Of a stretch of DNA of 64,000 bases, positions 4,929 to 61,567 are shown piece after piece. This stretch comes from Bacteroidota bacterium. Its GTDB lineage: Bacteria; Bacteroidota; Ignavibacteria; Kapaibacteriales; UBA2268. A model generated the notes under the pieces. That model was given only the letters and a program-made list of their open reading frames with translations, was not told where the DNA came from and did no database searches. Each line of letters opens with the position of its first letter. The stretch's first letter is position 1. The DNA is taken from the NCBI GenBank assembly GCA_022707965.1, contig JAKIZO010000001.1, positions 692 to 64,691 on the forward strand, in the 5' to 3' direction. The position numbers and the translations under genes were made by a program.

Positions 4929-5912
4929 ATGTTCGAAGGTGCTTCATATTATGCTGATAAAGTAGATACCACGATGCTTATAATCGTTGGTATATCCGTA
5001 TTTTTTCTAATAGGGATCGTAGCAGCAATGATTTACTTTGTGGTAAGGTACAACCATAAAAGAAATCCAGTTGCTACTCAAATTAAAGGGAATAATTTGC
5101 TTGAAGCAATATGGATAATTATTCCTCTGTTCATAGTATTAGGTATGTTCTGGCTTGGATGGAAGGATTTCAGCAGATTGCGTAAAATCACCGACTATGC
5201 GATGACAATTGAAGTTACGGGAAGAATGTGGAAATGGGACTTCAAATATCCCAATGGTAAGATGTCGGACACGCTATATGTTCCCGTTGGGAAAACAATC
5301 AAACTTGAGATGAGGTCTGCCGATGTTAATCACGCTTTCTTTATTCCCGCTTTGCGAATGAAAGAAGATGTGATAGCCAGCAGAAACACTTATATGATAA
5401 TTGAACCGCAAAAATTGGGCGAGTTCGATATTGCTTGTGCCGAATATTGCGGGCTAAATCACGCTTATATGTATACCAAACTGATAGTTGTGCCCGAGGA
5501 CGTATTCGAAGCGTGGCTCGCAGGTGATGAAGTAAGTCCGGAGGATAAGTTGCCTGCCCCAGCAATTGCAAAAATAGAACCTAAAAACGAGAATGAATAT
5601 TTGAAATATATCCGCAACCATAAAAATTTCGAACTACTGGTGAAATATGCTTGCGTAAGCTGCCATACAGTGGATGGCTCCGCGCATATTGGTCCATCGT
5701 TTGCCAAACTTGCTTCGGGGAAAACAGAGGTTATTAGAGATGGGAAGAAAATCACAGTAGAAATAGACGAAAAATATCTTCGCACTGCTCTGCTCGAACC
5801 AGATTATGAAATAGTTGCGGGATATAGCCCATACACTATGCCCACATTACGCGGCAGAATATCTGAAAACGACTTGAAAGCAATGATAGAACTACTGCTT
5901 GGAAAAAATTAG
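4929..5912 (+). CDS. ctaC: Cytochrome c oxidase subunit II with fused C-terminal cytochrome c domain (caa3-type)
   Basis: ATG at 4929 is preceded by GAGGAA; the ORF-track start at 4902 lies inside the previous gene. Two N-terminal TM helices, a CuA site (CAEYCGLNHAYM) and a C-terminal CxxCH (CVSCH). Confidence 0.9.
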   Translation: MFEGASYYADKVDTTMLIIVGISVFFLIGIVAAMIYFVVRYNHKRNPVATQIKGNNLLEAIWIIIPLFIVLGMFWLGWKDFSRLRKITDYAMTIEVTGRMWKWDFKYPNGKMSDTLYVPVGKTIKLEMRSADVNHAFFIPALRMKEDVIASRNTYMIIEPQKLGEFDIACAEYCGLNHAYMYTKLIVVPEDVFEAWLAGDEVSPEDKLPAPAIAKIEPKNENEYLKYIRNHKNFELLVKYACVSCHTVDGSAHIGPSFAKLASGKTEVIRDGKKITVEIDEKYLRTALLEPDYEIVAGYSPYTMPTLRGRISENDLKAMIELLLGKN

Positions 5913-5914
5913 GA

Positions 5915-6829
5915 ATGGATAAAGCCTCGATTGAAATAAAAGAAAAAGTAGAAGTGATTGAACGCGGGCATCTGCTTTCGAGCTTTGTTCAGCTTGCGAA
6001 GTTGAGAGTTACTTTTTTCGTTGCGTTATCATCGTTTTTCGGGTATATTTTTTTCGATGGGTTTTCACATCAGGCACTGCTTGTTGCCTCGGGTGTATTT
6101 CTGACAGCAGTTGCTTCCTCCGCTATTAATCAATATCAGGAACGAAAATACGATAAATTGATGACAAGGACACGCCAACGTCCGCTTCCATCGAATAAGT
6201 TGCGGAAAGAAGAAGCACTTATTTTTATAATTTTTTCGGGATTATTGGGAATATTTTTGCTTGGGCTGACTTTCAATTTCACGGCAGTCGGGCTAGCAGT
6301 ATTTTCGATTATATGGTATAATCTTGTATATACACCGCTGAAACGAAAAACTGCGTTTGCTGTGCTTCCTGGGGCATTGCTTGGGGCAATACCACCCGTT
6401 ATAGGTTGGACTGTTGCAGGTGGAGATGTATTTTCACCTAAAATTTTATTTATCGCTATTCTATTTTTTTTGTTTCAAATTCCACATTTCTGGTTTCTAT
6501 TTTTGATATACAACGACGACTATAAGCAGGCGGGCTATCCAACGCTAAAAGATACTTTGACTATTTCTCAAATTGGGCGAATTTCATTTGTCTGGATAGT
6601 ATGCCTTGCAATTGTGGCGGTCGCCGAACCTTTTTTCTTTGTGAATAATCCTTTGTTTCTGGCAGTGATATTCGGAATGTCCCTGATATTAATCTGGAAG
6701 AACAAATTTTTGCTTAATCTCGAAGAAGCAAATGAGACAAATAGTTATAGAATTGCATTTAGAACACTTAATATTTATGTTCTGATGGTTGTAGTATTGC
6801 TTACAATTGAAAAAATTATTAGTAATTAA
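5915..6829 (+). CDS. ctaB: Protohaem IX farnesyltransferase (haem O synthase)
   Basis: 304 aa UbiA-type polytopic protein with the NQYQERKYDKLMTRTRQRPLP motif. Starts 2 nt after the ctaC stop. Confidence 0.9.
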   Translation: MDKASIEIKEKVEVIERGHLLSSFVQLAKLRVTFFVALSSFFGYIFFDGFSHQALLVASGVFLTAVASSAINQYQERKYDKLMTRTRQRPLPSNKLRKEEALIFIIFSGLLGIFLLGLTFNFTAVGLAVFSIIWYNLVYTPLKRKTAFAVLPGALLGAIPPVIGWTVAGGDVFSPKILFIAILFFLFQIPHFWFLFLIYNDDYKQAGYPTLKDTLTISQIGRISFVWIVCLAIVAVAEPFFFVNNPLFLAVIFGMSLILIWKNKFLLNLEEANETNSYRIAFRTLNIYVLMVVVLLTIEKIISN

Positions 6830-6843
6830 TAAATGGTTCAATT

Positions 6844-8196
6844 ATGGAATTACTTTACAAACTTGTAATACCGCAGTCTGAAACAAATCTGCTGTTGCTT
6901 AATTTGCTGCAAATGATTTCGCTATCGGCTCTTATGATTTATTCGGGGATATTGCTTGGAAGCATATCGCTTTCGATATGGTTTTACAGAAAATCGATAA
7001 AGGAGAATTCGCTCAGATATGCTGAACTGGCAAAAGCATTGGCAGATTTGATAGCAAGCGGGAAAATGTTTGCTTTCGGGCTGGGAGTTGTGCCATTTCT
7101 GGCTATCATAATGGTTTATATACAGCTGCTGAACTTAACGGGTTCGTATGTGCCCAAATTTTTGATACTGTCATTTGTTCTGTGGCTTATTGCCATTGCG
7201 TTGATATTTATATACCATCATTCAACTGAGCTGAATTATTATCTGGAATTCTTCAAAACAAAAATGAGTTCAGAACGAGGAGATGATGATTTCTTGATGT
7301 TTCAGGAAAAAGCGGAACGTTACAGAACAAGAACGGGCTTTTGGGGAATAGTGTTGCTTGCTGTTTCGCTGTATATATTCATTGCGGCGTTAAATCTGGC
7401 GGTGGAGAATTGGCGTTGGGGTGCGGTGCATAATACATTCGAGTTGATTTTAAGTTTCTCTGCTTTTTTCAAGTATATGAGTTTTATCACTTCGGCTTTT
7501 GCAATAACGGGCATAGCGTTTCTCTACAAGAAATACAAATGGATGGAGGAGCCACCTTTTGCAGATGCAGAATTGAACGATTACGCAAAGCGTTTCAATT
7601 TGTCGGTGGCACTAATTGCGGGGATGTGTATGCCACTGTTTTACGTATTGAATTTGCTAATCACGCCAAAAACTGCAATAAACGACTTTCTTTTTGGTTT
7701 TGCTCTGCTGGGGCTTGTTTTGCTGTTTGTGTTGCTTCATTTCTTATATGAAATGGTGCGAAAGAGCAAGTTTATGTATATTTCCGCAACATTTTATTTG
7801 TTGATTGCAGTAATTGGCATTTCGCAGGTGAAAGAGCAGCTTGTATTCAAGTATGCAAATGCCGAACAAACTGAACGCCTCGCGAAAAATTACGAGGTAT
7901 TCTACCAGGATTTGCTTGCCAAAGCGGGGCGTGGCGAAGCGGAAATAAACGGTGAAGAAATTTACAAGGGCAAATGCGTTGCTTGCCACGATTTCGAACG
8001 CAAAGTAGTAGGACCACCGCATAAGTTGGTGCTTCCTAAGTATATTGATAATCCCGACGCTCTTGCAAAATTTATCTTGAACCCAGTAAAAGTAGACCCT
8101 GCTTATCCGCCGATGCCTTCGCAGGGATTACGTCCGAAGGAAGCCGAAGCAGTCGCAAAATATATGATTGAACATTACGGACCGAAAATTAAGTAG
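6844..8196 (+). CDS. Polytopic membrane protein fused to a C-terminal class I (c551/c552-like) cytochrome c domain
   Basis: 450 aa. About 8-10 hydrophobic helices, then a soluble domain reading GKCVACHDFERKVVGPPHKLVLPKY...PPMPSQG...EAEAVAKYMIEH. It is the last gene before a terminator. Confidence 0.7.
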   Translation: MELLYKLVIPQSETNLLLLNLLQMISLSALMIYSGILLGSISLSIWFYRKSIKENSLRYAELAKALADLIASGKMFAFGLGVVPFLAIIMVYIQLLNLTGSYVPKFLILSFVLWLIAIALIFIYHHSTELNYYLEFFKTKMSSERGDDDFLMFQEKAERYRTRTGFWGIVLLAVSLYIFIAALNLAVENWRWGAVHNTFELILSFSAFFKYMSFITSAFAITGIAFLYKKYKWMEEPPFADAELNDYAKRFNLSVALIAGMCMPLFYVLNLLITPKTAINDFLFGFALLGLVLLFVLLHFLYEMVRKSKFMYISATFYLLIAVIGISQVKEQLVFKYANAEQTERLAKNYEVFYQDLLAKAGRGEAEINGEEIYKGKCVACHDFERKVVGPPHKLVLPKYIDNPDALAKFILNPVKVDPAYPPMPSQGLRPKEAEAVAKYMIEHYGPKIK

Positions 8197-18772: not shown

Positions 18773-19477
18773 CTAATTTTTGTTTTGTTTAGGGTCGATT
18801 GCACTTCCCCAGCCATTAATATCAATAGTTTTGGATTCTTCATTGTCGGTAGTGATGGAAACACGAATTGAATTAACACCGATTTGAGTGGGCGTGAATT
18901 TAACTTCGAGAGGTGTTTCTGATTTTGGTTTCAACACATCGTTAGCTTTGAGGTTTATTTTCAATGATTCAGGATTAGTCTTTATGTCTAAAATTTTAAT
19001 TGGGGCGTCAGTATTGTTTTTGAGCATAACTTTGGAACTGGCTTCCTGCATATAATAGAGCTCGTTGAAAGGAATATATTGCGGAACAACAACAATCGGA
19101 CGGAAGACATTTGCTTTGATATAGTAGTAGAAGGATTTTTTCTCGGGGTCGGTCGATTCAATCATAATGCTTTTGACAACGTTGTCGGAATAACCTGTGA
19201 TATTCAATGTAATATCCAGGTTGGCAGAATCGCCCGGAGGGAGGATTTTTTTATCAAGTGGAGCAGTGGTGCAACCGCAACCTGGCTTCACATTAACAAT
19301 GTGGAGTTCTTCGTTGCCGTGGTTGTAGATTTTAACAGTTGCTTTCAGCGGGTTATCGGTTGATTTAACCTTGCCCCAGTTATATTCATTCGGTGGGTAC
19401 ATTTCGAGTTTTGGCTGGGAATATGCAACTACACTCAAACCGATGAAAGCGACAAACAAACCTAATAATCTTCTCAT
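18773..19477 (-). CDS. DUF1573 domain-containing secreted protein
   Basis: Signal peptide plus the hallmark KPGCGCTTAPL motif of DUF1573. 234 aa. Confidence 0.75.
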   Translation of the reverse strand: MRRLLGLFVAFIGLSVVAYSQPKLEMYPPNEYNWGKVKSTDNPLKATVKIYNHGNEELHIVNVKPGCGCTTAPLDKKILPPGDSANLDITLNITGYSDNVVKSIMIESTDPEKKSFYYYIKANVFRPIVVVPQYIPFNELYYMQEASSKVMLKNNTDAPIKILDIKTNPESLKINLKANDVLKPKSETPLEVKFTPTQIGVNSIRVSITTDNEESKTIDINGWGSAIDPKQNKN

Positions 19478-19544
19478 AGCATACCTTTAAACAAAATTGA
19501 TGAAACTAACAAACAAACTTAATAAAAAAAATAATTATATCAAA

Positions 19545-20393
19545 TTAAGGTTGATTTTTTAGCAACATAAAAGTATCACGAATTGCATAAGCTGAACCAA
19601 CTACGCCAATTCCACCCTCGACGCTTCCGAGCAAAGGGTTGACAGAATTAACACCAACGTTTTGAAGATACCAGCGGACTAAATTCCAGTCTGCTGACAT
19701 AATAGCAACTTCGTGCTTGCCAAACCACTTAAAAGCAGACCACACGACGCGTGTTTTTGTTGCGGGAAGCAATCCCGAACCCGATTGCTCTTTGTAACGA
19801 TTTTCATTGATAAAAGGATTATACACCCTTCTGTTTTTTTCATTTGTCGGAGGGTCGAGATATTTGCCATATTCGAGTGTATCCAGACAAGTAATTGCAA
19901 TGATATAATAATTGAACCCGGACGCACGTGTCCAGGAAATCGAATCGCTTGGTGGAAGATTAATAGTATCTTTCGGATATTGAATGGTCTTGTTGATACG
20001 GGTTTGCCAGGAAATTTCAGATGGTGTAGTAGTTTTGCCGCTGAGAATGGTTCCATCGGGAAGTTTTACTTCAATTGAATATTCGGTATTTGGTTTTACT
20101 TTGTAATTTGCGTCGGGATAGTAATAGCCAGGTTTTACGGTATCATAGTTAAATATGAGAGGGAAAATTTGACCATCGCCTCTGATAATAACTTCTGCAT
20201 TTTTGATAAAAGCCTGGTAATGGTTATATTTGGCTGTTACAGGCTGAGTTTTTAAAACTGCAATATTCTGTATTGGTTCGCCGACAAGCAGAATTGCTTC
20301 GAGGACGTTTTCGGGTTTGTAGTCGGTCGGGACATCATCGCCACAAGCAGCAAGAAACACCAACGAAATTAATATATATTTGAGCAATTTCAT
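19545..20393 (-). CDS. Lipoprotein, DUF4249-like partner of the TonB-dependent receptor
   Basis: Lipobox (FLAACGDD). 282 aa. Starts 9 nt downstream of the receptor gene, the usual position for DUF4249 proteins. Confidence 0.5.
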   Translation of the reverse strand: MKLLKYILISLVFLAACGDDVPTDYKPENVLEAILLVGEPIQNIAVLKTQPVTAKYNHYQAFIKNAEVIIRGDGQIFPLIFNYDTVKPGYYYPDANYKVKPNTEYSIEVKLPDGTILSGKTTTPSEISWQTRINKTIQYPKDTINLPPSDSISWTRASGFNYYIIAITCLDTLEYGKYLDPPTNEKNRRVYNPFINENRYKEQSGSGLLPATKTRVVWSAFKWFGKHEVAIMSADWNLVRWYLQNVGVNSVNPLLGSVEGGIGVVGSAYAIRDTFMLLKNQP

Positions 20394-20402
20394 TTTCGCC
20401 TC

Positions 20403-22673
20403 CTAAAATTTAATTTCATAAGAAATAGTTGGTAAAATTGGGATTAATCGCACATCTTCAACCTTTGTTTCTTCTTCTTGCAGGTTGTAGTATCTGAACC
20501 AGATATCGCGCCGATTATAGACATTGTAAATATCGAAAATAAGCTTTGAATCTAAACCAAAAGACTTGAAGGAATAAGTAGCATTGAGATTGAGCTGGTG
20601 AGAAGGCGGAAGACGCAGTCCATAACGTTGAGAAGGAACGATTTTGCCACGACCGTAAGTTTGAGTTGGCAGGAATGACTGGAATCTTGAAGTCGCTCCT
20701 GTATATGATTGCCCCGATTGGAAAGTGAAAGTAGCACCAATATCCCATTTTTCGGATAAATTATATTGCATTACTACTTTGAAGTCGTGCAGTCGGTCGT
20801 ATTTTGGTCTGAACTCACGTCCGTAGTTGATACTATCGAATTTAGCGCGAATATAGCCGAGTGCATAGCCAGCCCAGCCGGTAAGCTTCCCTACTCGTTT
20901 TTGCAAGAATACTTCGAAACCATAGGAATAGGCATTTCCGATGTAGAAAACATCGCGAACGTTAGAACCTTGAAGAGCATTTTGGTTGAGTTCGCTTACG
21001 TTTCTATATTTTTTGTAATATATGTCGAAGTTTAAATCAAAGTTCTGAAAAGGCTTTGTTTCGACACTGAAAATGTAATGAATTGCACGGCTTGCAGGAA
21101 CTGTGGAATCAGTAGGCAACCAGGTATCGAAGAATGAGAAATCGGGCTGAGTGGCAAGGCGAAGGTTCTGACTGAACACACCCCAGGCAGCTTTCAAAGC
21201 AATGTTGTCAGTGAGAGTGTATCTTAAAGCCAAACGCGGATCAATCAAAATAATGTCTCTCATTTGCCAATAGTTACCACGCAATCCGGCTTGAATTGCA
21301 AATAGTTCTATCGGAGAGTAGTTTATTTGAGCGTAGGCAGAATAATTATAGTCTTTCACTTTTAGGTTTGTTGTTCCCGCAGACGAACCTACCTGAGTGC
21401 TATCGGTTTCGCCGGTGAAATTTTGCAGGAACTGAAAGTTGTAATTATTAATTTCGAGACCGAAATTATGAGTGATTTTTTCGTTAGTAAACCATTCGAA
21501 ATTAAGTTTTGCGGAATAATCAGTAATTGAATTTTCAATTAAGAATTGGTATCCCGTTTGGTCGCCGTCAAAGTTGTTGAAATAATGGCTTGCACTGAGA
21601 TTTAAATTGGCAAAAAGAGAATTAGAAAAAATATGTGTCCAGTTCATAGAAGCAAGCCTATTGCCAATGGACAAGTCCATATCAATACCGAAAGAGCTGA
21701 CCATAAGGTTGTCCTTGCTTATGAATCCGCTTAATGATAATTTATCGTTGCTACCAATGTCCTGAGTAATTTTAGCATTAACATCGTAGAAATTAAAGTC
21801 GGGAATTGGTTGCTCGGGATTATTATCGATTAAGCTTTTGACAAGTTCGAAGTAAGTGCGACGCCCACCAATGAACCAGGAACCATTGCCAAGCGGTCCT
21901 TCCAGAGTAGCACGAGAGGAAATAGCACCGATTGATGCTAACCCCTGAGTTTGGCTTCTGTCGCCATCTTTTTGAGTAATGTTCAGCACAGCCGAAAGCC
22001 GCCCACCGTATTGAGCTTCGAAACCGCCTTTGATGAGTTCTACGTCTTTGATTGCATCGGTGTTGAAAGTAGAGATAAAACCGAACAAATGAGTTGGATT
22101 ATAGACAGTCGAGCCATCAAGTAGCACTAAATTTTGGTCGGGAGAACCACCACGAACAAACAAACCACTGGAAATTTGCGATGAAGTGAGCACACCAGGC
22201 AGGTATTGCAAAGAACGGAATACATCGGATTCGCCGCCTATGCGTATTTCCTTAATAGTTTCCACGGGGACATTTACTTTGCTAATCATCACCTGGCGTT
22301 GCTCAATTTCTCGTTCGGCTTCGACCAGAACGTCTTGTTTACGAACGGCAGTTTCCTTCAATGAAATATCAAGGCGAAGTTCTTCGTTTGCTTTCAGAGT
22401 GATTTTTCTTTCGAAACGCTCGTATCCGAGGAAGGAGACAACAAGAGTGTAGCTGCCATGTGGAATGCTTGATATGCTGTAGAAGCCGTTTTTGTTCGTC
22501 CTTGTTCCTAATTTTGTGTCTTTGAGCATAACAGTGGCGGAAATGAGCGTTTCTTTGCTTCTTTCATCACGCACAAAGCCTGCTATTGATGCTGTATTCG
22601 GAGCATTTAAATTTGCACTGAGATTATAGAAGATAAGCACGCTAAAAAGACAAATTGAAATAATAATCTTCAT
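20403..22673 (-). CDS. TonB-dependent receptor with N-terminal carboxypeptidase-regulatory-like domain
   Basis: 756 aa with a signal peptide and a CarboxypepD_reg-like segment (GFVRDERSKETLISATVML...GSYTLVVSFLGYE). Plug motif DVFRSLQYLPGV and a terminal aromatic residue (YEIKF). Confidence 0.85.
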   Translation of the reverse strand: MKIIISICLFSVLIFYNLSANLNAPNTASIAGFVRDERSKETLISATVMLKDTKLGTRTNKNGFYSISSIPHGSYTLVVSFLGYERFERKITLKANEELRLDISLKETAVRKQDVLVEAEREIEQRQVMISKVNVPVETIKEIRIGGESDVFRSLQYLPGVLTSSQISSGLFVRGGSPDQNLVLLDGSTVYNPTHLFGFISTFNTDAIKDVELIKGGFEAQYGGRLSAVLNITQKDGDRSQTQGLASIGAISSRATLEGPLGNGSWFIGGRRTYFELVKSLIDNNPEQPIPDFNFYDVNAKITQDIGSNDKLSLSGFISKDNLMVSSFGIDMDLSIGNRLASMNWTHIFSNSLFANLNLSASHYFNNFDGDQTGYQFLIENSITDYSAKLNFEWFTNEKITHNFGLEINNYNFQFLQNFTGETDSTQVGSSAGTTNLKVKDYNYSAYAQINYSPIELFAIQAGLRGNYWQMRDIILIDPRLALRYTLTDNIALKAAWGVFSQNLRLATQPDFSFFDTWLPTDSTVPASRAIHYIFSVETKPFQNFDLNFDIYYKKYRNVSELNQNALQGSNVRDVFYIGNAYSYGFEVFLQKRVGKLTGWAGYALGYIRAKFDSINYGREFRPKYDRLHDFKVVMQYNLSEKWDIGATFTFQSGQSYTGATSRFQSFLPTQTYGRGKIVPSQRYGLRLPPSHQLNLNATYSFKSFGLDSKLIFDIYNVYNRRDIWFRYYNLQEEETKVEDVRLIPILPTISYEIKF

Positions 22674-26578: not shown

Positions 26579-26586
26579 GCAAACAG

Positions 26587-26618
26587 TCGGGGCTTATTGC
26601 AAAGCCCCGATTTTGTTT
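26587..26618 (+). terminator. Rho-independent terminator (probably serves both convergent genes)
   Basis: TCGGGGCT-TATTGCAA-AGCCCCGA hairpin followed by TTTTGTTT. It lies between the convergent stops at 26578 and 26635. Confidence 0.75.
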
Positions 26619-26634
26619 GCGTCGCTATGTCACA

Positions 26635-27915
26635 TTATTTGACTATAGTTATTGGTATGGCAACAGTTTCTTTTTGATTGCTAAGGCGAACGAAAAATTT
26701 TCCGGCACCGATTTCATTCAGTTCTATTGTATTTGAATATAGTTTCCCTTCTTTTACTATTTTACCTTCCAGCGAAACAATTGAAAAATCATCGAAATTT
26801 AAATGATTAGCTTCAATTTTAATGAAAGATGTTGCGGGATTAGGATAAACTTTTATCATTTGTGCTAAATCCTTTACGCTTGCAAGCGGGCTAACCCAAA
26901 TGGTAACAAAGTCGTTTGCAGAATAATCAGGGTTGTTTATCAAGGCAGCAACGAATACATCATTATCATAATAATTTCCCCAGAGCATTCCTTCAACTTT
27001 TTTGCCTGCATTAATGGTAATGACGGGTTGATTTTCTGTCGTCTTGAATTCATAAATATTTCCATCATAAGCTGAAACTCTGAATTTTGTGCCTTCGGGA
27101 TTGAACACTAATTCACGGGGACCATCCCAACCAGTTGTCCCAACTTCATATTCGAAAGTTTCATCAATATCGAGAGCGTATCTGAACACTTTACGGCTTC
27201 CGTTAGAAACAACGTAGAGCTGGTTGTCTCTGATTTCAAAATAATTGCCGAATGAACCTGCGGGATAGGATTTAATTTCTTCTTTTGTTGATAAATCATA
27301 AACAGTTACGTAGCTGTCTTCTGCACCCGTTCCTTCGTTAAGCACAAACAATTTTTCGTTGAAAATCTGACACATTTGCACATTCATTTTGGCTTCAATG
27401 GTGTCTTTTGCTTCTTTTGTAGCAAGGTCGATTGAAATCACGTAATTGTGCTCGGGCGACCAGGAACCTGGTGGGGTTACGCGGGTTGAAACATAAAGCA
27501 AGCCATTATCAATGAAAAAGCCATAAACAGTGTGTTCAAATTCAATAGAGTCCACAAGGCTACCGTTAGTAATATTATACTTCCAGATATATCCATTAGT
27601 TTGAAGATAAAGGAATTCTTCATCGAAAAGTGCTCTTACGGGGAAGCTATTCAGTCCGAAAGGGAATTCAATGATTTTCGAAGCGGAAAGCGGTCCCATT
27701 CCAATCGGGTCATTACGCCAGAGTGAGGGCGGTTCGTCTGTGTCGGGGTCGTAATTGCCATCGAAATTGGCGTCGACACCTTTACATAATACATAAAAAT
27801 CGGAATTATAGTGATAAATCATAAGTGGCTGCAAGCCAACGGATACATTAATTTGAGCATTTAAATAGAAAATGCTGACAAACATTAATGCGAAAAACGC
27901 ATATAAATGCTTCAT
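26635..27915 (-). CDS. Secreted, possibly beta-propeller, repeat protein with T9SS C-terminal sorting domain; under cobalamin riboswitch control
   Basis: ATG at 27915 lies 8 nt after GGAGG. Signal peptide (FFALMFVSIFYLNAQ), repeated short beta-strand motifs, and a C-terminal type-A T9SS CTD (KVYPNPATSFIKIE...GKFFVRL...IPITIVK). Confidence 0.7.
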   Translation of the reverse strand: MKHLYAFFALMFVSIFYLNAQINVSVGLQPLMIYHYNSDFYVLCKGVDANFDGNYDPDTDEPPSLWRNDPIGMGPLSASKIIEFPFGLNSFPVRALFDEEFLYLQTNGYIWKYNITNGSLVDSIEFEHTVYGFFIDNGLLYVSTRVTPPGSWSPEHNYVISIDLATKEAKDTIEAKMNVQMCQIFNEKLFVLNEGTGAEDSYVTVYDLSTKEEIKSYPAGSFGNYFEIRDNQLYVVSNGSRKVFRYALDIDETFEYEVGTTGWDGPRELVFNPEGTKFRVSAYDGNIYEFKTTENQPVITINAGKKVEGMLWGNYYDNDVFVAALINNPDYSANDFVTIWVSPLASVKDLAQMIKVYPNPATSFIKIEANHLNFDDFSIVSLEGKIVKEGKLYSNTIELNEIGAGKFFVRLSNQKETVAIPITIVK

Positions 27916-28038
27916 AAAAGAAACCTCCAATTATTTAATATATCTATAAAATCTGAAGGAAATGAAAGAAATATAGTGTCCTTTCGCTTCCCTCATCCAT
28001 CAGTTTGCGCTGATGTACCACACCTGGTGGTCAATGAG

Positions 28039-28204
28039 CATTGCAAATCGGTCTTCTGACTTGAGCATCGAACCCTTGTGCTTTGCCTTCCCATTCTGTT
28101 CGAACAGTGGCTGCTTGCACGGATAGGCAAGCGTAAAGCCAAAGTAGCTCTTACAGCGGCGCAACCGTACAGGATTTTCACCTGTTTCCCGTGCATTTGC
28201 AATG
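28039..28204 (-). promoter_or_regulatory. Cobalamin (B12) riboswitch aptamer
   Basis: The minus-strand RNA has a 10-bp P1 (CAUUGCAAAU at 28204-28195 pairing with AUUUGCAAUG at 28048-28039). It also has GGGAAACAGGUGAAAAUCCUGU, GCCGCUGUAAGAGC, GCCACUG-hairpin-GGGAAGGC, and the B12 box AGUCAGAAGACC directly 5' of the closing strand. Confidence 0.9.
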
Positions 28205-28214
28205 GCATTATTCT

Positions 28215-28245
28215 CAAAAATAGAAAAATAATGTTATTTAGCAAA
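28215..28245 (-). promoter_or_regulatory. Bacteroidota-type promoter (TTTG-N19-TATTTTTG) driving the riboswitch transcript
   Basis: On the minus strand, TTTG is at 28245-28242 and TATTTTTG at 28222-28215, about 10 nt upstream of the P1 5' strand. Confidence 0.55.
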
Positions 28246-28302
28246 AGAAAATTAGTTTTCAATCAATAAAACAGCAATCAATTATAAACCATTGATAAAT
28301 AG

Positions 28303-29511
28303 CTACTTAAATCTCAATGCTGATACGGGCTTTATTTTTGCTGCTATCAAAGCGGGAAGAACCGAAGCAAGCAACACAAGCACAAATGTAATCGAAGCGA
28401 CAAGGACGTAATGCAATGGTGAAATAAATATTGGCAAAGCATCTAAAAAGTATATTTCACTTTTGAGATGAATAAATCTAAATTGTTGCTGCAAAACACA
28501 AAACATAAACGACAAAACGCAACCTGCAACAATTCCATAAAGCCCAATTTGCAAACCTTGATAAGCAAATATCTTGATAATACCAGTTTTGCTAATGCCC
28601 AGAGTTCGCAAAATTCCAATTGTGCGGGTTTTTTCGATTACGGTAATTATCAAAGTAGTGATAATATTCAGCATAGCAACAAGCGAAATAATTCCCAGCA
28701 CCAGTGGAATTGGCTCACGTTGAAGTTCAATCCAGGCGAATAGTGATGAATGAATTTCATAATAAGTCAAAGTCCAGAATGGGAAGCCCAAAAACTTCAT
28801 AATCGATTGCGAAACATCGCTTGCTTTGTTTATATCTTTGATGAAAATTTCAATCTTATTTGCAGAATTTAGTGGCAAACCATAGAAGTTTCGGGCAGTT
28901 GCCTCGGGCAAAAGCACAAGGGTTTCATCATAGATGGTCATACCCGTTTTGTAGGTGCCAACGATTTTGAATTTGTTGATTTTATATTTTGTAGCGTTAT
29001 CCTTAATGCTTATTGAGTATAAATTAACGAAATCGCCAATTTTCAGAGCAAGTTTTCTGAGTAATGGCTCGCCGACAATAACTTCATTGGCACTGTCACA
29101 CGAAAAATTTTTTTGTCCGTTGATAAGATTAGAAAAACCATTTGGGTCGTATTCGGGATTGTAGGTTCTGAACATAACGCCATCAACAAAGCCCGCCGCA
29201 CGGACAAGCCCCTCGCCTTCGATAACAGGATGGATTGCAGAAATGGCGTCGAATTTTGCACAAATTTGTTCGGTTATTGCTTTTGCGTTACCAATTGGGT
29301 CTTTGTTGTAGCTGAAAACCACGATGTGAGAAGTGAATTTTGTTGTGTTGTTGCGAAGTTCATTTTCGAAGCCGTGGAGAATAGCCAAGCTTATCAACAA
29401 AGCAACAACACCAAGCATAACACTCAGCAGCGACACCAACCGTGCAAATCGCAGAAATCGAGTTTTTCGTGATTTTGCAATTGATGAAGAAATGTATCTA
29501 TATAAATTCAT
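28303..29511 (-). CDS. FtsX-family ABC transporter permease (LolC/LolE-like)
   Basis: 402 aa with an N-terminal TM helix, a MacB-like periplasmic domain and a C-terminal 3-TM FtsX module (IGILRTLGISKTGIIKIF). Confidence 0.8.
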   Translation of the reverse strand: MNLYRYISSSIAKSRKTRFLRFARLVSLLSVMLGVVALLISLAILHGFENELRNNTTKFTSHIVVFSYNKDPIGNAKAITEQICAKFDAISAIHPVIEGEGLVRAAGFVDGVMFRTYNPEYDPNGFSNLINGQKNFSCDSANEVIVGEPLLRKLALKIGDFVNLYSISIKDNATKYKINKFKIVGTYKTGMTIYDETLVLLPEATARNFYGLPLNSANKIEIFIKDINKASDVSQSIMKFLGFPFWTLTYYEIHSSLFAWIELQREPIPLVLGIISLVAMLNIITTLIITVIEKTRTIGILRTLGISKTGIIKIFAYQGLQIGLYGIVAGCVLSFMFCVLQQQFRFIHLKSEIYFLDALPIFISPLHYVLVASITFVLVLLASVLPALIAAKIKPVSALRFK

Positions 29512-55124: not shown

Positions 55125-55610
55125 TTATTTTTCGATGCTTTTCTTGATATTCAGAATATCTTCGAATAGTTTTTCCTCGTTCTGATAAGAAGAAAAGCGA
55201 AGCCGCAGGTAACGTTTTCGTTCGGGAAGTTTAATAAGTGCAATTTTAAATTTTGAACGGATGCGAATAGATTTTTCATATTTAATGATAATTCTTTCAA
55301 TGTCCGTAAATTTATACTTTTTCTCTTTTTTGCCGACACGGAAAACAATATAATCATTGCCGATTATGATAAATCTGCGTTTTATAGAATTAACAAGCAA
55401 TGAAATAGAGGCAATGACAATAAACAAAGCAAGCAAAATGGTAATTGGGTCGAGCAGGCGAATTGTGATGTATCCGCCTTCGATTGTGCCTCTCAAAATA
55501 CTGTAAAACACAAGCACAATTGCGTCAATTGCAATTGTCTGATAGTAGAAATCGAGCCTTTGAGGATAGATTTTTTCAAGGTTGTTTAAATCGTTCATAT
55601 TACAACTCAT
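55125..55610 (-). CDS. Hypothetical small membrane protein
   Basis: Two TM helices, then a basic soluble domain. Start is at ATG 55610 or 55598, abutting or overlapping the murG stop at 55600-55602. Confidence 0.4.
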   Translation of the reverse strand: MSCNMNDLNNLEKIYPQRLDFYYQTIAIDAIVLVFYSILRGTIEGGYITIRLLDPITILLALFIVIASISLLVNSIKRRFIIIGNDYIVFRVGKKEKKYKFTDIERIIIKYEKSIRIRSKFKIALIKLPERKRYLRLRFSSYQNEEKLFEDILNIKKSIEK

Positions 55611-56694
55611 AGCCAATTGTTTTTAATACTTCGATAGCAACATCACGAGCTGCATTTGGTCGAGCAAGTTTTCGGGCAGCGTCGGACATACGGGCTAATT
55701 TGTCATCGGAAAACAGTGAATTTATCATATCAAGCAGTATTGCCTCAATTTCGTCGTTCAGAATGATTTCGGCAGCACCATTTTTTTTGAGGATTTCGGC
55801 GTTGAAAAGCTGTTCGTTGTTGGAAGCAGATGGAAGTGGAACCAAAATCGCAGGTTTTGCTGCAACAGTGAGTTCCCACACGGTAGTTGCACCCGAACGG
55901 CAAACAACTAAATCGGCGGCTGCGTAGTAGTCGGCAATATCGTCGATAAATTCTTTAACAATCAGATTTTCGTGCTTAATGCCGTTGTACTGATAATATT
56001 TGCCAGTTTGCCAGAGGACGAAATATCCGCTTTCGAGCAGGCTATCGAGGTGCTTTTCGACGGCTTTGTTAATTGCGGAGGCACCCAGACTTCCACCAAA
56101 AACAAAGATAGTTTTTTGGTCGTGTGGAATGCCAAGTTTGCTGCGAGCATCGATTTTGCTCGGAAAGTTCAGAAATTGCTTGCGAATAGGATTGCCAAGA
56201 GTAACAATTTTATCGTGATATGATTTTTCGAAGTAGTTTATGCTTTCATCAAAAGATGTGATTATTTTCGTAGCATATTTGCAAAGCGATTTAATTGCTT
56301 TTCCGGGACGCACATTTGATTCGAGCAGGAATAGAGGCAAATTGTGCAAACGAGCAGCGTAACCAGGGGGGAAACTCAGATAAGCACCTGTTGCGATTAC
56401 AGCAGAAATATTGTTTTCGCGTATCAGTTTTCTACATTTATTAATTGCACTTGCAATTTGAAATGGAAGCAAAAGAATAGAGAGTGATTTCTTTATTCCC
56501 GAAATATTAATAGCATTAAAGTTGTAACCAAGCGACGGCACCACCCTACTTTCAATTTTATCAGCAGTGCCGACGAAATGGAAATCGCATCTGCCACCGG
56601 TAATATCATTGAGTTGCTCGCAAACAGCAATTGCAGGAAAAAGATGTCCGCCAGTGCCGCCTGCTGCAATTAATATGCTTATTTTATCATTCAT
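55600..56694 (-). CDS. murG: UDP-N-acetylglucosamine--N-acetylmuramyl-(pentapeptide) pyrophosphoryl-undecaprenol GlcNAc transferase
   Basis: ATG at 56694 (MNDKISILIAAGGTGGHLFPA). GGSLGA and the C-terminal GT28 domain are present. Confidence 0.9.
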   Translation of the reverse strand: MNDKISILIAAGGTGGHLFPAIAVCEQLNDITGGRCDFHFVGTADKIESRVVPSLGYNFNAINISGIKKSLSILLLPFQIASAINKCRKLIRENNISAVIATGAYLSFPPGYAARLHNLPLFLLESNVRPGKAIKSLCKYATKIITSFDESINYFEKSYHDKIVTLGNPIRKQFLNFPSKIDARSKLGIPHDQKTIFVFGGSLGASAINKAVEKHLDSLLESGYFVLWQTGKYYQYNGIKHENLIVKEFIDDIADYYAAADLVVCRSGATTVWELTVAAKPAILVPLPSASNNEQLFNAEILKKNGAAEIILNDEIEAILLDMINSLFSDDKLARMSDAARKLARPNAARDVAIEVLKTIGYEL

Positions 56695-56770
56695 ATTACA
56701 AATATAATAAAAAGTTGCGAAATATTTTTTTTTGAGAAGAAAATGTTTAATCATCAATTATTATTCATAA

Positions 56771-56803
56771 AACAAAAGGGGCAATCGAAGAAGGTTGCCC
56801 CCT
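56771..56803 (-). terminator. Rho-independent terminator after the vWA-OmpA gene
   Basis: On the minus strand, a GGGGCAA-loop-TTGCCCC hairpin (56802-56779) is followed by TTTTGTTT. Confidence 0.8.
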
Positions 56804-56834
56804 TAAAATTCATATCTAATTTGAAAAATTATCA

Positions 56835-58160
56835 TTAATTATTTTTTTCAGGTGAAGTAATGATGACAATTTCGGTTCGGCGGTTGAGCTGCCTGCCGAA
56901 TTCGTCTTTGTTGCTTGCGATTGGACGGCGTTTGCCATAGCCAACTATGGACATTCTACTTTTGTCGACGCCTTTCGAAGCAAGATAATTCATTACGCTT
57001 TCGGCTCGCTTTTGCGAGAGAACGTAGTTGAATGCGTCGGTTCCAACGTTGTCAGTATGCCCTTCGATAATAATTGAAACATTCGGCTTATTAATCATAA
57101 ATTCAGCGAGGATGTCGAGTTCTTTAATAACCTCAGGCAAATTATACTGTCCTGTTTTGAACAAAAGATTTTCAATGATAAGTTTACGTCCAAGTTCGAC
57201 AATTGGAATAACCTTTTTCACAAGCTTATTATCTGTCGGGTTAAAGAGAGCAATTTCAATTGAATCAGGAATAACGGGTTCGTCTGAACGGTAGCTAAGA
57301 ATATACAGATTAGTGAGTTGTTTGGAGAAATTATCTAAAATATTGGAAAAGGGCAAATCAAGGTCGAAAGCAGCACCACGAGTGGAACGCGAGATTATTT
57401 CGTAATTTTTCAAGCGAGGCGGGGCAATGCTAAAGACGCGTATGTCGTTTTTGATGAGCTTTTCGATAATAGATTGAGTGGTGTGTCGGGTTGTGCCCAT
57501 ACCTTTTTCGCCTGCTTGATGGTAAGGAGCGTCGGTGATAAGAACAACGCAACGAACAGCATCAGGACGGAAGCGGAAGCGGGTTGCTTCGTCGAGAGCT
57601 TCGAGAGCGTTTTCTTTTTCGTCGCCACCGCCAAAAGCACGCACGGGAGCGAGCCAACCAATGAAGTCGGCAACTTTATTTGTCGGTTTGAACACTTTGC
57701 TAATATCGTCGTCGAAAAGAATTAGTCCTAATCTATAATCAATACCGCGTTTAGTCAGATTAGTTGTAAAATCAGCAATATTGTCTTTTACTTGATTAAT
57801 ATATGTTTGCATCGAACCCGTAATATCAATGGCAAAAATAAAATCGACCAAAACATTGTCAACGACAGGGATTTTTTCGACTTTGGTGACTTTTTTTGGG
57901 ACGCCTTTTTCGAAAACGAATAGGTTATCGGATGTAAGAGTATCAACAGGTTCGCCGAGTTTATTATAAGCTTCTATTATAATACGCATTTCAGGGAATT
58001 TGGAAATATCCACGTTTCGGATGGAAATTTCAATTTCTTTCCGAGCCGATTCTACTTTTGTTTCCTGCAAAATTTCGATGCGATTGAACTTATCTTGAGA
58101 AAAAAGCGATGAAACGAAAAAAAATACGAACAAACTAAAAACTGATTTTCTGATAATCAT
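56835..58160 (-). CDS. Secreted von Willebrand factor A domain protein with C-terminal OmpA/MotB-like peptidoglycan-binding domain
   Basis: 441 aa with a signal peptide and a vWA MIDAS-like motif (FAIDITGSM, LITDAP). OmpA_C motif IIEGHTDNVGTDAFNYVLSQKRAESVMNYL...NRRTEIVI. Confidence 0.8.
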   Translation of the reverse strand: MIIRKSVFSLFVFFFVSSLFSQDKFNRIEILQETKVESARKEIEISIRNVDISKFPEMRIIIEAYNKLGEPVDTLTSDNLFVFEKGVPKKVTKVEKIPVVDNVLVDFIFAIDITGSMQTYINQVKDNIADFTTNLTKRGIDYRLGLILFDDDISKVFKPTNKVADFIGWLAPVRAFGGGDEKENALEALDEATRFRFRPDAVRCVVLITDAPYHQAGEKGMGTTRHTTQSIIEKLIKNDIRVFSIAPPRLKNYEIISRSTRGAAFDLDLPFSNILDNFSKQLTNLYILSYRSDEPVIPDSIEIALFNPTDNKLVKKVIPIVELGRKLIIENLLFKTGQYNLPEVIKELDILAEFMINKPNVSIIIEGHTDNVGTDAFNYVLSQKRAESVMNYLASKGVDKSRMSIVGYGKRRPIASNKDEFGRQLNRRTEIVIITSPEKNN

Positions 58161-58184
58161 TTTAATTCTTTATTTTATTTATAC

Positions 58185-58226
58185 ATAAAAAATTGCCCCA
58201 ACTGAATAGAAACAGTGGGGCAATTA
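58185..58226 (-). terminator. Terminator-like hairpin between the 486-aa gene and the vWA-OmpA gene
   Basis: On the minus strand, AATTGCCCCA (58225-58216) pairs with TGGGGCAATT (58200-58191), followed by TTTTT. It ends only about 25 nt before the ATG at 58160. Confidence 0.6.
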
Positions 58227-58241
58227 TAGAAATACACAGAA

Positions 58242-59702: not shown

Positions 59703-59738
59703 AGTATTCTTTCTATTTAATTTAACTAATCTACTTAA

Positions 59739-61478: not shown

Positions 61479-61530
61479 TTTATATCCCTTGTAAAATCAT
61501 AATTTCAATAATAATTTTTTAATTATCTGA

Positions 61531-61552
61531 GCGGAGGCATCGAAGTCTCCGC
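61531..61552 (-). other. Intercistronic GC-rich hairpin between the 759-aa and 579-aa genes
   Basis: GCGGAG (61531-61536) and CTCCGC (61547-61552) form a 6-bp stem with a 10-nt loop. No T run follows on the minus strand, so it is probably not a full terminator. Confidence 0.4.
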
Positions 61553-61567
61553 CCAGGAATATAATAA

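Follow-up and report, generated by a model that had tools for sequence, protein, structure and literature searches.

A cobalamin riboswitch precedes a lone gene for a candidate corrinoid-capture protein, a T9SS-tailed, circularly permuted relative of BtuG

What does a cobalamin riboswitch control when no btu or cob gene lies next to the single gene behind it? The question arises from one locus in the 64 kb stretch of DNA analysed here (the window). The first-pass annotation, made from the sequence itself, had described a full cobalamin aptamer on the minus strand, a TTTG-N19-TATTTTTG promoter ahead of it, and a lone gene before a convergent terminator, whose product would carry a signal peptide, a possible beta-propeller body and a type-A C-terminal sorting domain (CTD) of the type IX secretion system (T9SS). 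It had also remarked on the absence of adjacent btu and cob genes. These elements held up under closer analysis and are placed as follows.

28215-28245, minus strand: Bacteroidetes-type promoter, TTTG (-33), N19, TATTTTTG (-7), an exact match
28029-28215, minus strand: cobalamin riboswitch aptamer (RF00174) with the GCCACUG/GGGAAGGC peripheral element, matching the full Rfam model
27916-28028, minus strand: expression platform, three conserved hairpins followed by the Shine-Dalgarno (SD) sequence GGAGG at 27924-27928
26635-27915, minus strand: coding sequence of 426 aa, with a signal peptide, a predicted permuted BtuG-like seven-bladed propeller and a T9SS type-A CTD
27853-27915, minus strand: Sec (SPI-type) signal peptide, aa 1-21, assigned by sequence inspection, with no lipobox
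26881-27852, minus strand: predicted seven-bladed beta-propeller, aa 22-345 (AF2 model, HHalign permutation test, rotation scan, contact mapping and motif census)
Within aa 22-345, minus strand: propeller signature residues Q29-P30, C44, E194-G195, N224, N238-G-S, G265-P-R-E268, E308 and Y331
26638-26850, minus strand: T9SS type-A CTD, aa 356-426 (PF18962 and TIGR04183)
26585-26612, both strands: bidirectional intrinsic terminator, an 11-bp stem (6 GC pairs) with a run of T on each strand

For the riboswitch, the match found by cmscan reaches 75.9 bits, well over the gathering score of 31.5 (E 6.6e-17), and spans model positions 1-189 of 189, as expected of a full-length aptamer; it is the only Rfam match across the 64 kb window. 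The motifs of the aptamer can be read directly in the RNA: GGUGAAAAUCC, GCCACUG...GGGAAGGC, AGUCAGAAGACC, and a 10-bp P1 formed by CAUUGCAAAU and AUUUGCAAUG. The promoter pattern occurs four times in the window, where 0.74 occurrences are expected, and it is conserved at the four closest orthologous loci (L010-L013) as well as at L018 and L027. From the 3' end of the aptamer, the start codon is 113 nt away on the same strand. The leader in between has a fold z-score of -2.5, and its hairpins and SD are kept in 10 orthologues with sparse covariation. Its last hairpin (27954-27995, GAGGGAAGCGAAAG...CUUUCAUUUCCUUC) is followed by AGAUUUUAU, and a terminator made of this hairpin and UUUU would fit the clade of the window, but not L001, L004 and L014, where a U-tract is absent as a conserved feature. 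A switch between SD and anti-SD (CCUUC against GGAGG) is possible. Because the U-tract varies in those three loci and the covariation is too sparse, we prefer neither termination nor SD sequestration.

The gene itself runs from an ATG at 27915 to a stop at 26635, is monocistronic and is the only one behind the riboswitch; the terminator at its end is shared with the next gene, a convergent one encoding a DUF2795 protein. Its product starts with MKHLYAFFALMFVSIFYLNAQ, whose hydrophobic core and A-Q cleavage-type end are those of a Sec-type signal by inspection, and the first cysteine is C44. The CTD exceeds the curated cut-offs of both models (PF18962 over aa 356-418, 34.8 bits for a cut-off of 27; TIGR04183, 31.7 bits for a cut-off of 23). 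No other ORF of the window matches the CTD HMM, and CTD proteins are plentiful in the Kapabacteria/Ignavibacteria loci that we fetched. The neighbours, named from Pfam matches at the syntenic locus L010, are an FtsX/MacB-type permease, SurE, the DUF2795 protein, rpsD, cmk, a HAD hydrolase and ssb. The gene has no btu or cob gene beside it; the window holds no BtuB, BtuG or BtuFCD gene, and an HMM scan of it gave no further match to a BtuB-like TonB-dependent transporter (TBDT), to canonical BtuG or to the protein of about 220 aa that accompanies them in the operons described below. The TBDT at 20403-22673, with its DUF4249 partner, was considered as a cognate receptor and ruled out: it is of the CarboxypepD_reg/SusC-like kind, reaches only 23 bits with the TonB-B12 model, lacks a riboswitch, and is separated from the gene by 4 kb that contain housekeeping genes.

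What, then, is the protein? Pfam and NCBIfam give only sub-threshold matches to generic propellers over its body (Tachylectin, PorZ, WD40), and a PDB search with the single sequence matched only the CTD. An AF2 model from a 65-sequence alignment (pLDDT 92.9, pTM 0.81) predicts 28 strands arranged as seven blades of four strands each, with a beta-sandwich CTD behind them. The top Foldseek matches are seven-bladed propellers of the YVTN, YncE and BtuG types, including 3dsm, 8ptf and 8bmx_D. Yet, BtuG ranks 13-42 with the two models searched, below YncE and YVTN, and since all seven-bladed propellers score alike, the fold alone cannot single out BtuG.

Profiles were more discriminating. The family profile recovers BtuG chains as its first matches among all PDB sequences (8ptd at 1.7e-7, and also 8blw, 8bmx, 8p97 and 3dsm), and profile-profile comparison relates the family to BtuG/DUF5074 with a probability of 99.9-100%. 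The Pfam model PF16819 (DUF5074), which is carried by BtuG1 homologues and by the canonical BtuG of the operons, does not match the window protein at E<=1. The order of the blades differs: HHalign aligned the body to BtuG with a score of 155.7 over 152 columns as it stands, and of 217.6 over 292 columns once residues 186-345 were placed ahead of 22-185, covering BtuG 17-338 (E 5.6e-31 local, 7.2e-40 global). Among 16 cut points, the rotation scan peaks just once, at residue 186. Family residues 186-345 thereby map to BtuG 16-178 (blades 1-4) and residues 22-185 to BtuG 185-338 (blades 5-7), and this permuted order recurs where the family HMM matches three more canonical BtuGs. An out-of-register match might be thought to reflect mere similarity between blade repeats. 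We reject this explanation because family residues 22-183 align significantly on their own to BtuG 185-337, and because the alignment after permutation extends over the full length and the scan is unimodal. Judged by these alignments, the family and BtuG/DUF5074 are related by circular permutation. The first-pass idea of a BtuG-like protein is hence supported in that the protein is homologous to BtuG from end to end after permutation, but it is not a plain BtuG.

Are the residues that bind the ligand among those in common? BtuG2 contacts adenosylcobalamin through E55, F58, Q93, N107, S131, S195, Y196, Q219, Y239, Y316 and Y335 (PMC13616437), a numbering that we verified on the 8bmy sequence. 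In the permuted family, E55 corresponds to E194 (conserved in 93 of 109 members), Q93, which is N in most BtuGs, to N224 (103/109), and N107 to N238 (102/109). S131 falls on G265, adjoining an invariant P266-R267 that BtuG also has (P132-R133), and Q219, again N in most BtuGs, falls on Q29 (76/109), adjoining the invariant P30. With S195/Y196, these two positions lie on or beside the conserved G265-P-R, Q29-P30 and Y331. Four of the ten aligned contacts are found among just 14 highly conserved columns of 294 (P = 6e-4). The match is partial. An aromatic residue (F or Y) equivalent to F58, which in BtuG2 stacks on the DMB base, is kept in 83 of the 109 members, the L018 protein with its EG-x-F among those that have it, and is deleted in the protein of the window and in its close clade, and the positions of Y239, Y316 and Y335 are not conserved in the family. 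The alignment supports the view that the permuted family carries residues of the BtuG binding site, as predicted corrin contacts.

The family is large. An exhaustive profile search found at least 871 cluster representatives at E<=1e-3, 109 of them at E<=1e-30; a word-indexed search had returned just 11 relatives, greatly understating its size. The best 159 of the 871 representatives include 148 with a CTD, 4 lipoproteins and 38 double propellers, and members are labelled merely as hypothetical or as T9SS sorting domain proteins. A locus search with a one-motif alignment gave 6 genomic and 3 metagenomic loci. Orthologues keep the riboswitch: RF00174 lies upstream on the same strand in all 24 loci with upstream sequence (the window and 23 fetched), the linked loci come from 13 or more lineages below 50% identity, and by nhmmer a cobalamin riboswitch precedes every further family gene for which 300 nt or more of upstream sequence exist. 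Because the Rfam covariance model is more sensitive than the one used with nhmmer, 11 btuG loci that had appeared negative were re-checked with Rfam, which found no riboswitch there either. Some BtuG-like genes of Kapabacteria thus lack the riboswitch, and the DUF5074-like proteins of this group are not all necessarily specific for B12. Several MAGs bear the label Hyphomicrobiales, which we disregarded; the 90%-identity cluster that contains the L018 protein also has a member annotated as Candidatus Kapaibacterium.

In many Kapabacteria/Ignavibacteria MAGs the permuted propeller is the first gene of an operon. About 17 distinct loci have the order riboswitch, permuted propeller, BtuB-like TBDT, a protein of about 220 aa and a canonical BtuG lipoprotein, the best NCBIfam match of the TBDT being TIGR01779 (TonB-B12). 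Other arrangements include operons without a recognisable TBDT and lone permuted genes; the lone-gene arrangement is specific to the clade of the window. In three of the MAGs with a lone gene, a different contig encodes a BtuG-like lipoprotein (L022/L064, L016/L074 and L020/L091). The mode of attachment also varies. The orthologues at L027 and L032 carry a lipobox but no CTD, in two operons both T9SS-tailed proteins are replaced by lipoprotein forms, and lipobox variants of the permuted family include P0028, P0040, P0043, P0103 and L032. The CTD-less orthologues of L027 and L032 show that lipidation and T9SS sorting are interchangeable for this propeller. The first-pass proposal of display by T9SS instead of lipidation stands in this sense, but does not extend to replacing the lid of BtuB: since the permuted propeller usually co-exists with canonical BtuG, it would be an additional capture component.

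We propose that the 426-aa protein is probably an extracellular corrinoid-capture protein that is repressed by B12 and would feed a BtuB/BtuG system. Five independent lines argue for a BtuG-like, T9SS-displayed capture protein, as first suggested: profile homology to BtuG, the conserved contacts, the linkage to the riboswitch, the operons of relatives, and the interchange of lipobox and CTD. At low intracellular cobamide, the leader with its riboswitch would permit expression of the mRNA, and the protein would cross the inner membrane via Sec and the outer membrane via T9SS, steered by its type-A CTD. It may then stay on the cell surface or be released. A face of the propeller would bind cobalamin or related corrinoids via E194, N224, N238, Q29 and the G-P-R (265-267) loops, and hand the ligand to a BtuB-type TonB-dependent receptor with a canonical BtuG lid. 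As the window has no gene for such a partner, we assume that it is encoded elsewhere in the same genome. Under replete cobamide, the aptamer would bind its ligand and turn expression off. A bolder version, which we hold to be possible at best, makes the protein a "cobalaminophore", a T9SS-secreted scavenger of corrinoids, diffusible or anchored to LPS, that would be the B12 counterpart of a hemophore. By moving the termini, the permutation would have let a sorting domain at the C-terminus take over from an N-terminal lipid anchor with the B12 face intact. In the lineage of the window the protein would be the sole btu component that a riboswitch still controls directly, and B12 would then regulate extracellular capture instead of transport.

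Two other explanations have to be set against a capture protein that feeds BtuB/BtuG. The protein could be the functional BtuG itself, tethered to the outer membrane by T9SS and closing a stable "pedal-bin" complex over a BtuB encoded elsewhere. Homology, conserved contacts and the direct adjacency of the permuted gene to a BtuB-like TBDT in operons would fit such a lid, as would the occurrence of TBDT-less operon variants and lone genes. Yet, the operons that also encode a canonical, collinear BtuG lipoprotein have a more natural lid at hand, MAGs in which the permuted gene stands alone also encode a BtuG-like lipoprotein elsewhere, and double propellers are hard to square with a single lid. 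In addition, because the permutation moves the termini, the anchor point is shifted by about three blades relative to BtuG. We regard this explanation as unlikely.

We give still less weight to the idea that the protein does not bind corrinoids at all and has another role on the surface, such as the capture of other tetrapyrroles or nutrients, adhesion, or an enzymatic activity useful only when B12 is scarce, in which case the residues in common with BtuG would be structural. Cobalamin riboswitches also govern genes other than transporters, e.g. those of B12-independent isozymes, which makes such a role conceivable, and the BtuG2 contacts missing here (F58 in the clade of the window, Y239, Y316 and Y335) point the same way. 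There is also a precedent in BtuK2, a propeller from a btu locus that does not bind cobamides (PMC13616437). But the residues kept in the family are polar ones in loops (E, N, N, Q, R) and coincide with corrin contacts more often than expected, the riboswitch linkage is universal over all the lineages sampled, and the gene shares operons with a BtuB-like TBDT and BtuG. Extracellular corrinoid capture thus remains our preferred reading.

The combination of a riboswitch with a permuted, T9SS-exported relative of BtuG points to an undescribed route of B12 scavenging in environmental bacteria. To our knowledge, BtuG-type B12 "piracy" has been described solely for lipoproteins of gut Bacteroides. 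The founding BtuG paper reported no homologues outside Bacteroidetes (PMC6143338), and we found no publication on the T9SS-tailed permuted family in the literature searched. Our analysis defines a large family of proteins labelled hypothetical, which combines residues of the BtuG binding site in a permuted chain with a T9SS route in environmental Kapabacteria and Ignavibacteria, and would give hundreds of genes behind riboswitches an annotation. It would tie the type IX secretion system to the acquisition of a vitamin and give a clean natural case of a ligand-binding propeller that has been circularly permuted, with the swap of anchors, from lipobox to CTD and back, visible among orthologous operons. 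The uncharacterised partner of about 220 aa is a second candidate for handling B12.

How does the family compare with known systems? The hallmarks of BtuG are femto- to picomolar binding of corrinoids and a stable complex with BtuB. B. thetaiotaomicron BtuG1/2/3 (PF16819; PDB 3DSM, 8BMX-8BN0, 8PTD, 8P97) are likewise seven-bladed YncE-like propellers, have the contacts E55, N93 and N107 as well as the P-R and G-x-[QN]-P loops in common with the permuted family, are controlled by cobalamin riboswitches and linked to a BtuB-type receptor (in the permuted family, in relatives of the window), and are, like the window protein, predicted to be extracellular. The differences are the permuted order of blades, to which the PF16819 HMM is blind, the Sec signal and T9SS CTD where BtuG has a lipobox, and the co-occurrence of the permuted protein with canonical BtuG in the same operons. 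The family is also found in Kapabacteria/Ignavibacteria-type MAGs rather than gut Bacteroides, and the window gene is lone and monocistronic and lacks the aromatic residue equivalent to F58.

In role, the protein likely matches BtuH, BtuJ/DUF4465 and BtuK1, the accessory surface B12 binders of Bacteroides that are encoded in riboswitch-controlled btu operons and feed BtuB-BtuG (PMC13616437), as by this analogy it would provide extra extracellular capture. In fold and anchoring it differs from them: BtuJ is a jellyroll, BtuH has a fold of its own, BtuK combines PKD and propeller domains, and all are lipoproteins. BtuK chains (4R5O, 9S6C) are absent from the PDB matches of the family profile, and the window protein has neither of the BtuK traits, a PKD domain or a lipobox. 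T9SS goes unmentioned in the review of Bacteroides B12 binders (PMC13616437). The best structural matches are E. coli YncE and the archaeal YVTN surface-layer propellers (PDB 3VGZ and 1L0Q; TM 0.72-0.74, normalised to YncE), and the layout of 1L0Q, a propeller plus an Ig-like domain, is reproduced here. These proteins are, however, absent from the sequence-profile matches and have no B12 context, T9SS CTD or riboswitch. In the literature searched, we found no T9SS cargo tied to vitamin B12 or controlled by a cobalamin riboswitch. With its Sec signal and PF18962/TIGR04183 CTD, the window protein nevertheless has the layout of type-A T9SS cargo, among which HBP35 of Porphyromonas gingivalis, which binds hemin, is a precedent for a nutrient binder displayed by this secretion system.

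The gene for the 426-aa protein lies on the minus strand of the window, with the following elements:

28215-28245, minus strand: Bacteroidetes-type promoter TTTG-N19-TATTTTTG, abutting the aptamer
28029-28215, minus strand: full-length cobalamin riboswitch aptamer (RF00174; 75.9 bits against a gathering score of 31.5, E = 6.6e-17)
27924-27928, minus strand: SD GGAGG, 5' of the start codon
27915 to 26635, minus strand: monocistronic CDS of 426 aa
26585-26612: bidirectional terminator, facing a convergent DUF2795 gene

What the first-pass annotation had observed held in all respects: the sequence and the cmscan alignment both show all the quoted cobalamin-aptamer motifs, the promoter is present ahead of the aptamer, a single gene precedes the convergent terminator, and no btu genes are adjacent. 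RF00174 is the sole Rfam match across the 64 kb window, where HMMs built here for the BtuB-like receptor, canonical BtuG and a ~220-aa protein of relatives' operons match nothing else. The TTTG-N19-TATTTTTG promoter pattern (four matches in the window, 0.74 expected) is retained at the closest orthologous loci, and the 113-nt leader between aptamer and start codon, with three hairpins and then the SD, is conserved in ten orthologues. ORFs of 67-89 aa span the riboswitch entirely in the window (27993-28262, minus strand) and at two related loci (L009:7708-7911, L010:5704-5910), where source pipelines had called them genes; here structured RNA has almost certainly been mistaken for coding sequence.

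The neighbours are housekeeping genes (FtsX-type permease, SurE, rpsD, cmk, HAD hydrolase and ssb; by Pfam on the syntenic locus L010). Synteny downstream is kept in orthologous loci (DUF2795, rpsD, cmk, HAD, ssb, DUF1207, TBDT, DUF4249, DUF1573), whereas upstream the window and L010 have an FtsX-type permease, and L001, L004 and L009 have RecJ (window 28303-29511 compared with 5744-7492 in these three); at this rearrangement boundary, promoter, riboswitch and gene act as a single unit. A conserved trio 4 kb away (18773-22673, minus strand) encodes a CarboxypepD_reg/SusC-like TonB-dependent receptor (TBDT, 756 aa), a DUF4249 protein (282 aa) and a DUF1573 protein (234 aa), with a TTTG-N19-TAnnTTTG promoter match just 5' of the DUF1573 gene (19514-19544, minus strand). 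Since the trio scores 23 bits to TonB-B12 and lacks a riboswitch, we regard it as having no connection with B12. Elsewhere, a run of large ORFs (55600-63847, minus strand) includes three without Pfam match at E<=1e-5 (759, 579 and 486 aa), adjoined by an OmpA/VWA-domain protein (56835-58160).

The protein has, as annotated, a Sec signal, which lacks a lipobox, and a type-A T9SS C-terminal sorting domain (CTD; PF18962, 34.8 bits, cut-off 27; TIGR04183, 31.7 bits, cut-off 23); no Pfam or NCBIfam family covers its body. AlphaFold2 reached a pLDDT of 75.6 on 11 sequences, and of 92.9 (pTM 0.81) on a 65-sequence alignment. The predicted model, in which 28 strands build seven blades of four strands each ahead of a beta-sandwich, agrees with the propeller suggested earlier. 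Foldseek places YVTN/YncE propellers at the top, and BtuG entries (3dsm, 8ptf, 8bmx_D) follow at ranks 13-35, so that the fold, a generic seven-bladed propeller, does not set BtuG apart from other families.

A word-indexed search gave just 11 relatives, and an exhaustive search with an HMM of the body minus its CTD revealed a large family of 871 cluster representatives at E<=1e-3 (245 at E<=1e-10, 109 at E<=1e-30), annotated at source only as 'hypothetical protein' or 'T9SS type A sorting domain-containing protein'. Its hosts are MAGs of Candidatus Kapaibacterium/Kapabacteria, Ignavibacteria and unclassified Bacteroidota, and it is Ignavibacteria and Kapabacteria MAGs that supply the proteins closest to that of the window, at 91-83% identity. 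Members share the motifs h-C-x-G-x-D-x-N-[FY], L-x-[VI]-L-[NCS]-E-G-x-[FY]-G, N-G-S-H, T-x-x-G-[YFW]-[DN]-G-P-R-E and K-x-E-[GS]. A T9SS-type tail is present in 148 of the top 159 representatives, four others of ~359 aa have a lipobox and no tail, and 38 of the 159 are tandem double propellers.

Against all PDB sequences, the family profile matches BtuG chains first (8ptd at 1.7e-7, then 8blw_B, 8bmy/8bn0/8bmx, 8p97 and 3dsm). The relationship to BtuG is, however, not collinear. HHalign of 109 family members with 37 BtuGs gives 99.4% probability out of register (family 186-362 with BtuG 16-195), and family 22-183 alone independently matches BtuG 185-337. When residues 186-345 are placed before 22-185, a single end-to-end alignment of 292 columns covers BtuG 17-338, and the score rises from 155.7 without permutation to 217.6 (E = 5.6e-31 local, 7.2e-40 global). 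A scan of 16 cut points has its single maximum at residue 186 and declines on either side, and the family HMM matches three independent canonical BtuGs (L015, L018, L027) in the identical permuted order. On these alignments, the family's propeller is that of BtuG in circularly permuted form, and this accounts for the failure of the BtuG model PF16819/DUF5074 to match the 426-aa protein. The double propellers (~780 aa) have both halves in permuted register (L019:4936-7254, L103:777-3236, P0014, P0018-P0020 and others), and the L019 gene is likewise preceded by a riboswitch. Circular permutations classically arise by tandem duplication, so these forms may bear on the origin of this one.

Contacts between BtuG2 and AdoCbl are tabulated in section 3.4 of a 2026 review (PMC13616437); we rebuilt the 8bmy sequence from an alignment, confirmed all 11 contact residues on their stated numbers and transferred them through the permuted alignment. 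E55 corresponds to E194, a position with E in 93 of 109 family members and in 38 of 38 BtuGs; Q93, which most BtuGs replace by N, to N224 (103/109); and N107 to N238 (102/109). S131 falls on G265, adjoining P266-R267, a pair invariant in family and BtuG alike; Q219 (N in most BtuGs) on Q29 (76/109), adjoining the invariant P30; and S195/Y196 on positions adjoining the near-invariant Y331. The residue that stacks on the DMB base, F58, has its counterpart in the F/Y of E-G-x-[FY]-G (83/109 members) and is deleted in the window protein's clade; Y239, Y316 and Y335 are unconserved in the family. Columns conserved in both groups cluster at or beside contacts, four of the ten aligned contacts lying on the 14 highly conserved columns of 294 (hypergeometric P = 6e-4).

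The riboswitch is kept in relatives: by Rfam, each of the 23 fetched loci of the family that include upstream sequence has RF00174 immediately 5' of the gene and in the same orientation. These loci differ in their neighbours and represent at least 13 lineages that share less than 50% identity. By nhmmer the riboswitch precedes every further family gene with >=300 nt upstream. Our survey anchored on the canonical BtuGs of L015, L018 and L027 (78 loci, mostly Kapabacteria and Ignavibacteria) and a local HMM census revealed a recurrent operon at ~17 distinct loci: riboswitch, permuted propeller, TBDT, ~220-aa protein and canonical BtuG lipoprotein. The receptor's best NCBIfam match is TIGR01779/BtuB, full length yet under the equivalog cut-off. 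Receptor-less variants exist, as does the classical riboswitch-TBDT-BtuG arrangement, e.g. in Pedobacter. T9SS-CTD/BtuG operons also occur in several MAGs labelled 'uncultured Hyphomicrobiales' and in single ones labelled Gammaproteobacteria or Chloroflexota (records including L015, L018, L032, L041, L042, L044 and L045); the 90%-identity cluster of the L018 protein contains one annotated Candidatus Kapaibacterium, so these labels look like misassignments.

The ~220-aa protein, between BtuB-like receptor and canonical BtuG (L027:10230-10901, L015:9173-10057, L018:9284-10162, L032:5339-6004), has no Pfam or PDB match and resembles the LIC_13355 lipoprotein family only weakly; we regard it as a candidate additional B12-handling surface protein. 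Its anchor is a lipobox in the forms of 221-223 aa and a T9SS CTD in those of ~290-307 aa, and is always of the same type as that of the permuted propeller: both have a lipobox and no CTD in L027 and L032, and both have a CTD in the other operons. This concerted switching between orthologous operons speaks for surface exposure of both proteins and for the CTD as a substitute for lipidation.

Three MAGs with a lone, window-like permuted gene under riboswitch control encode a BtuG-like lipoprotein on another contig (L022/L064, L016/L074, L020/L091), with no riboswitch by Rfam at the two such loci scanned (L064, L074). In many Kapabacteria MAGs neither a TBDT nor a cobalamin riboswitch lies near the gene for a canonical BtuG-like lipoprotein, which stands by itself or together with that for the ~220-aa protein:

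L062:5986-7068
L065:5989-7074
L070:5983-7068
L064:5001-7062
L074:5989-7065

Rfam found no cobalamin riboswitch at 11 such loci. These Kapabacteria have their btu components scattered, and at the loci examined the riboswitch is retained by the permuted propeller alone.

We think it probable that the window protein, most likely a permuted BtuG paralogue, is a B12-repressed, T9SS-exported corrinoid-capture propeller acting upstream of BtuB-BtuG. The propeller would bind corrinoids and, exported, be either retained at the surface or released, handing captured ligand over to BtuB-BtuG; the riboswitch would let B12 repress the gene, off-switch behaviour being the norm for its class. That the propeller is itself the lid of BtuB seems unlikely, since canonical BtuG co-occurs, the chain termini are relocated and double-propeller forms exist. 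A propeller with a non-corrinoid function is less probable still, given the enrichment of conserved columns for contact residues and the operon context.

The first-pass annotation did not recognise the arrangement as a described one, and a full-text search of the library used found nothing relevant linking T9SS or CTD to vitamin B12 or the cobalamin riboswitch, nor on DUF5074 or Kapabacteria cobalamin. The founding BtuG paper describes lipoproteins confined to Bacteroidetes (PMC6143338), and the 2026 review of the Btu relay treats lipoproteins only, T9SS being unmentioned (PMC13616437). BtuG-type B12 capture is thus the known part; the permuted, T9SS-sorted form, its environmental Bacteroidota/FCB-group hosts and, in the window, a detached lone riboswitch-controlled gene appear to be new. 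The proposed role is functionally akin to that of the Bacteroides accessory binders BtuH, BtuJ and BtuK, from which the window protein would differ by its ancestry as a permuted BtuG paralogue.
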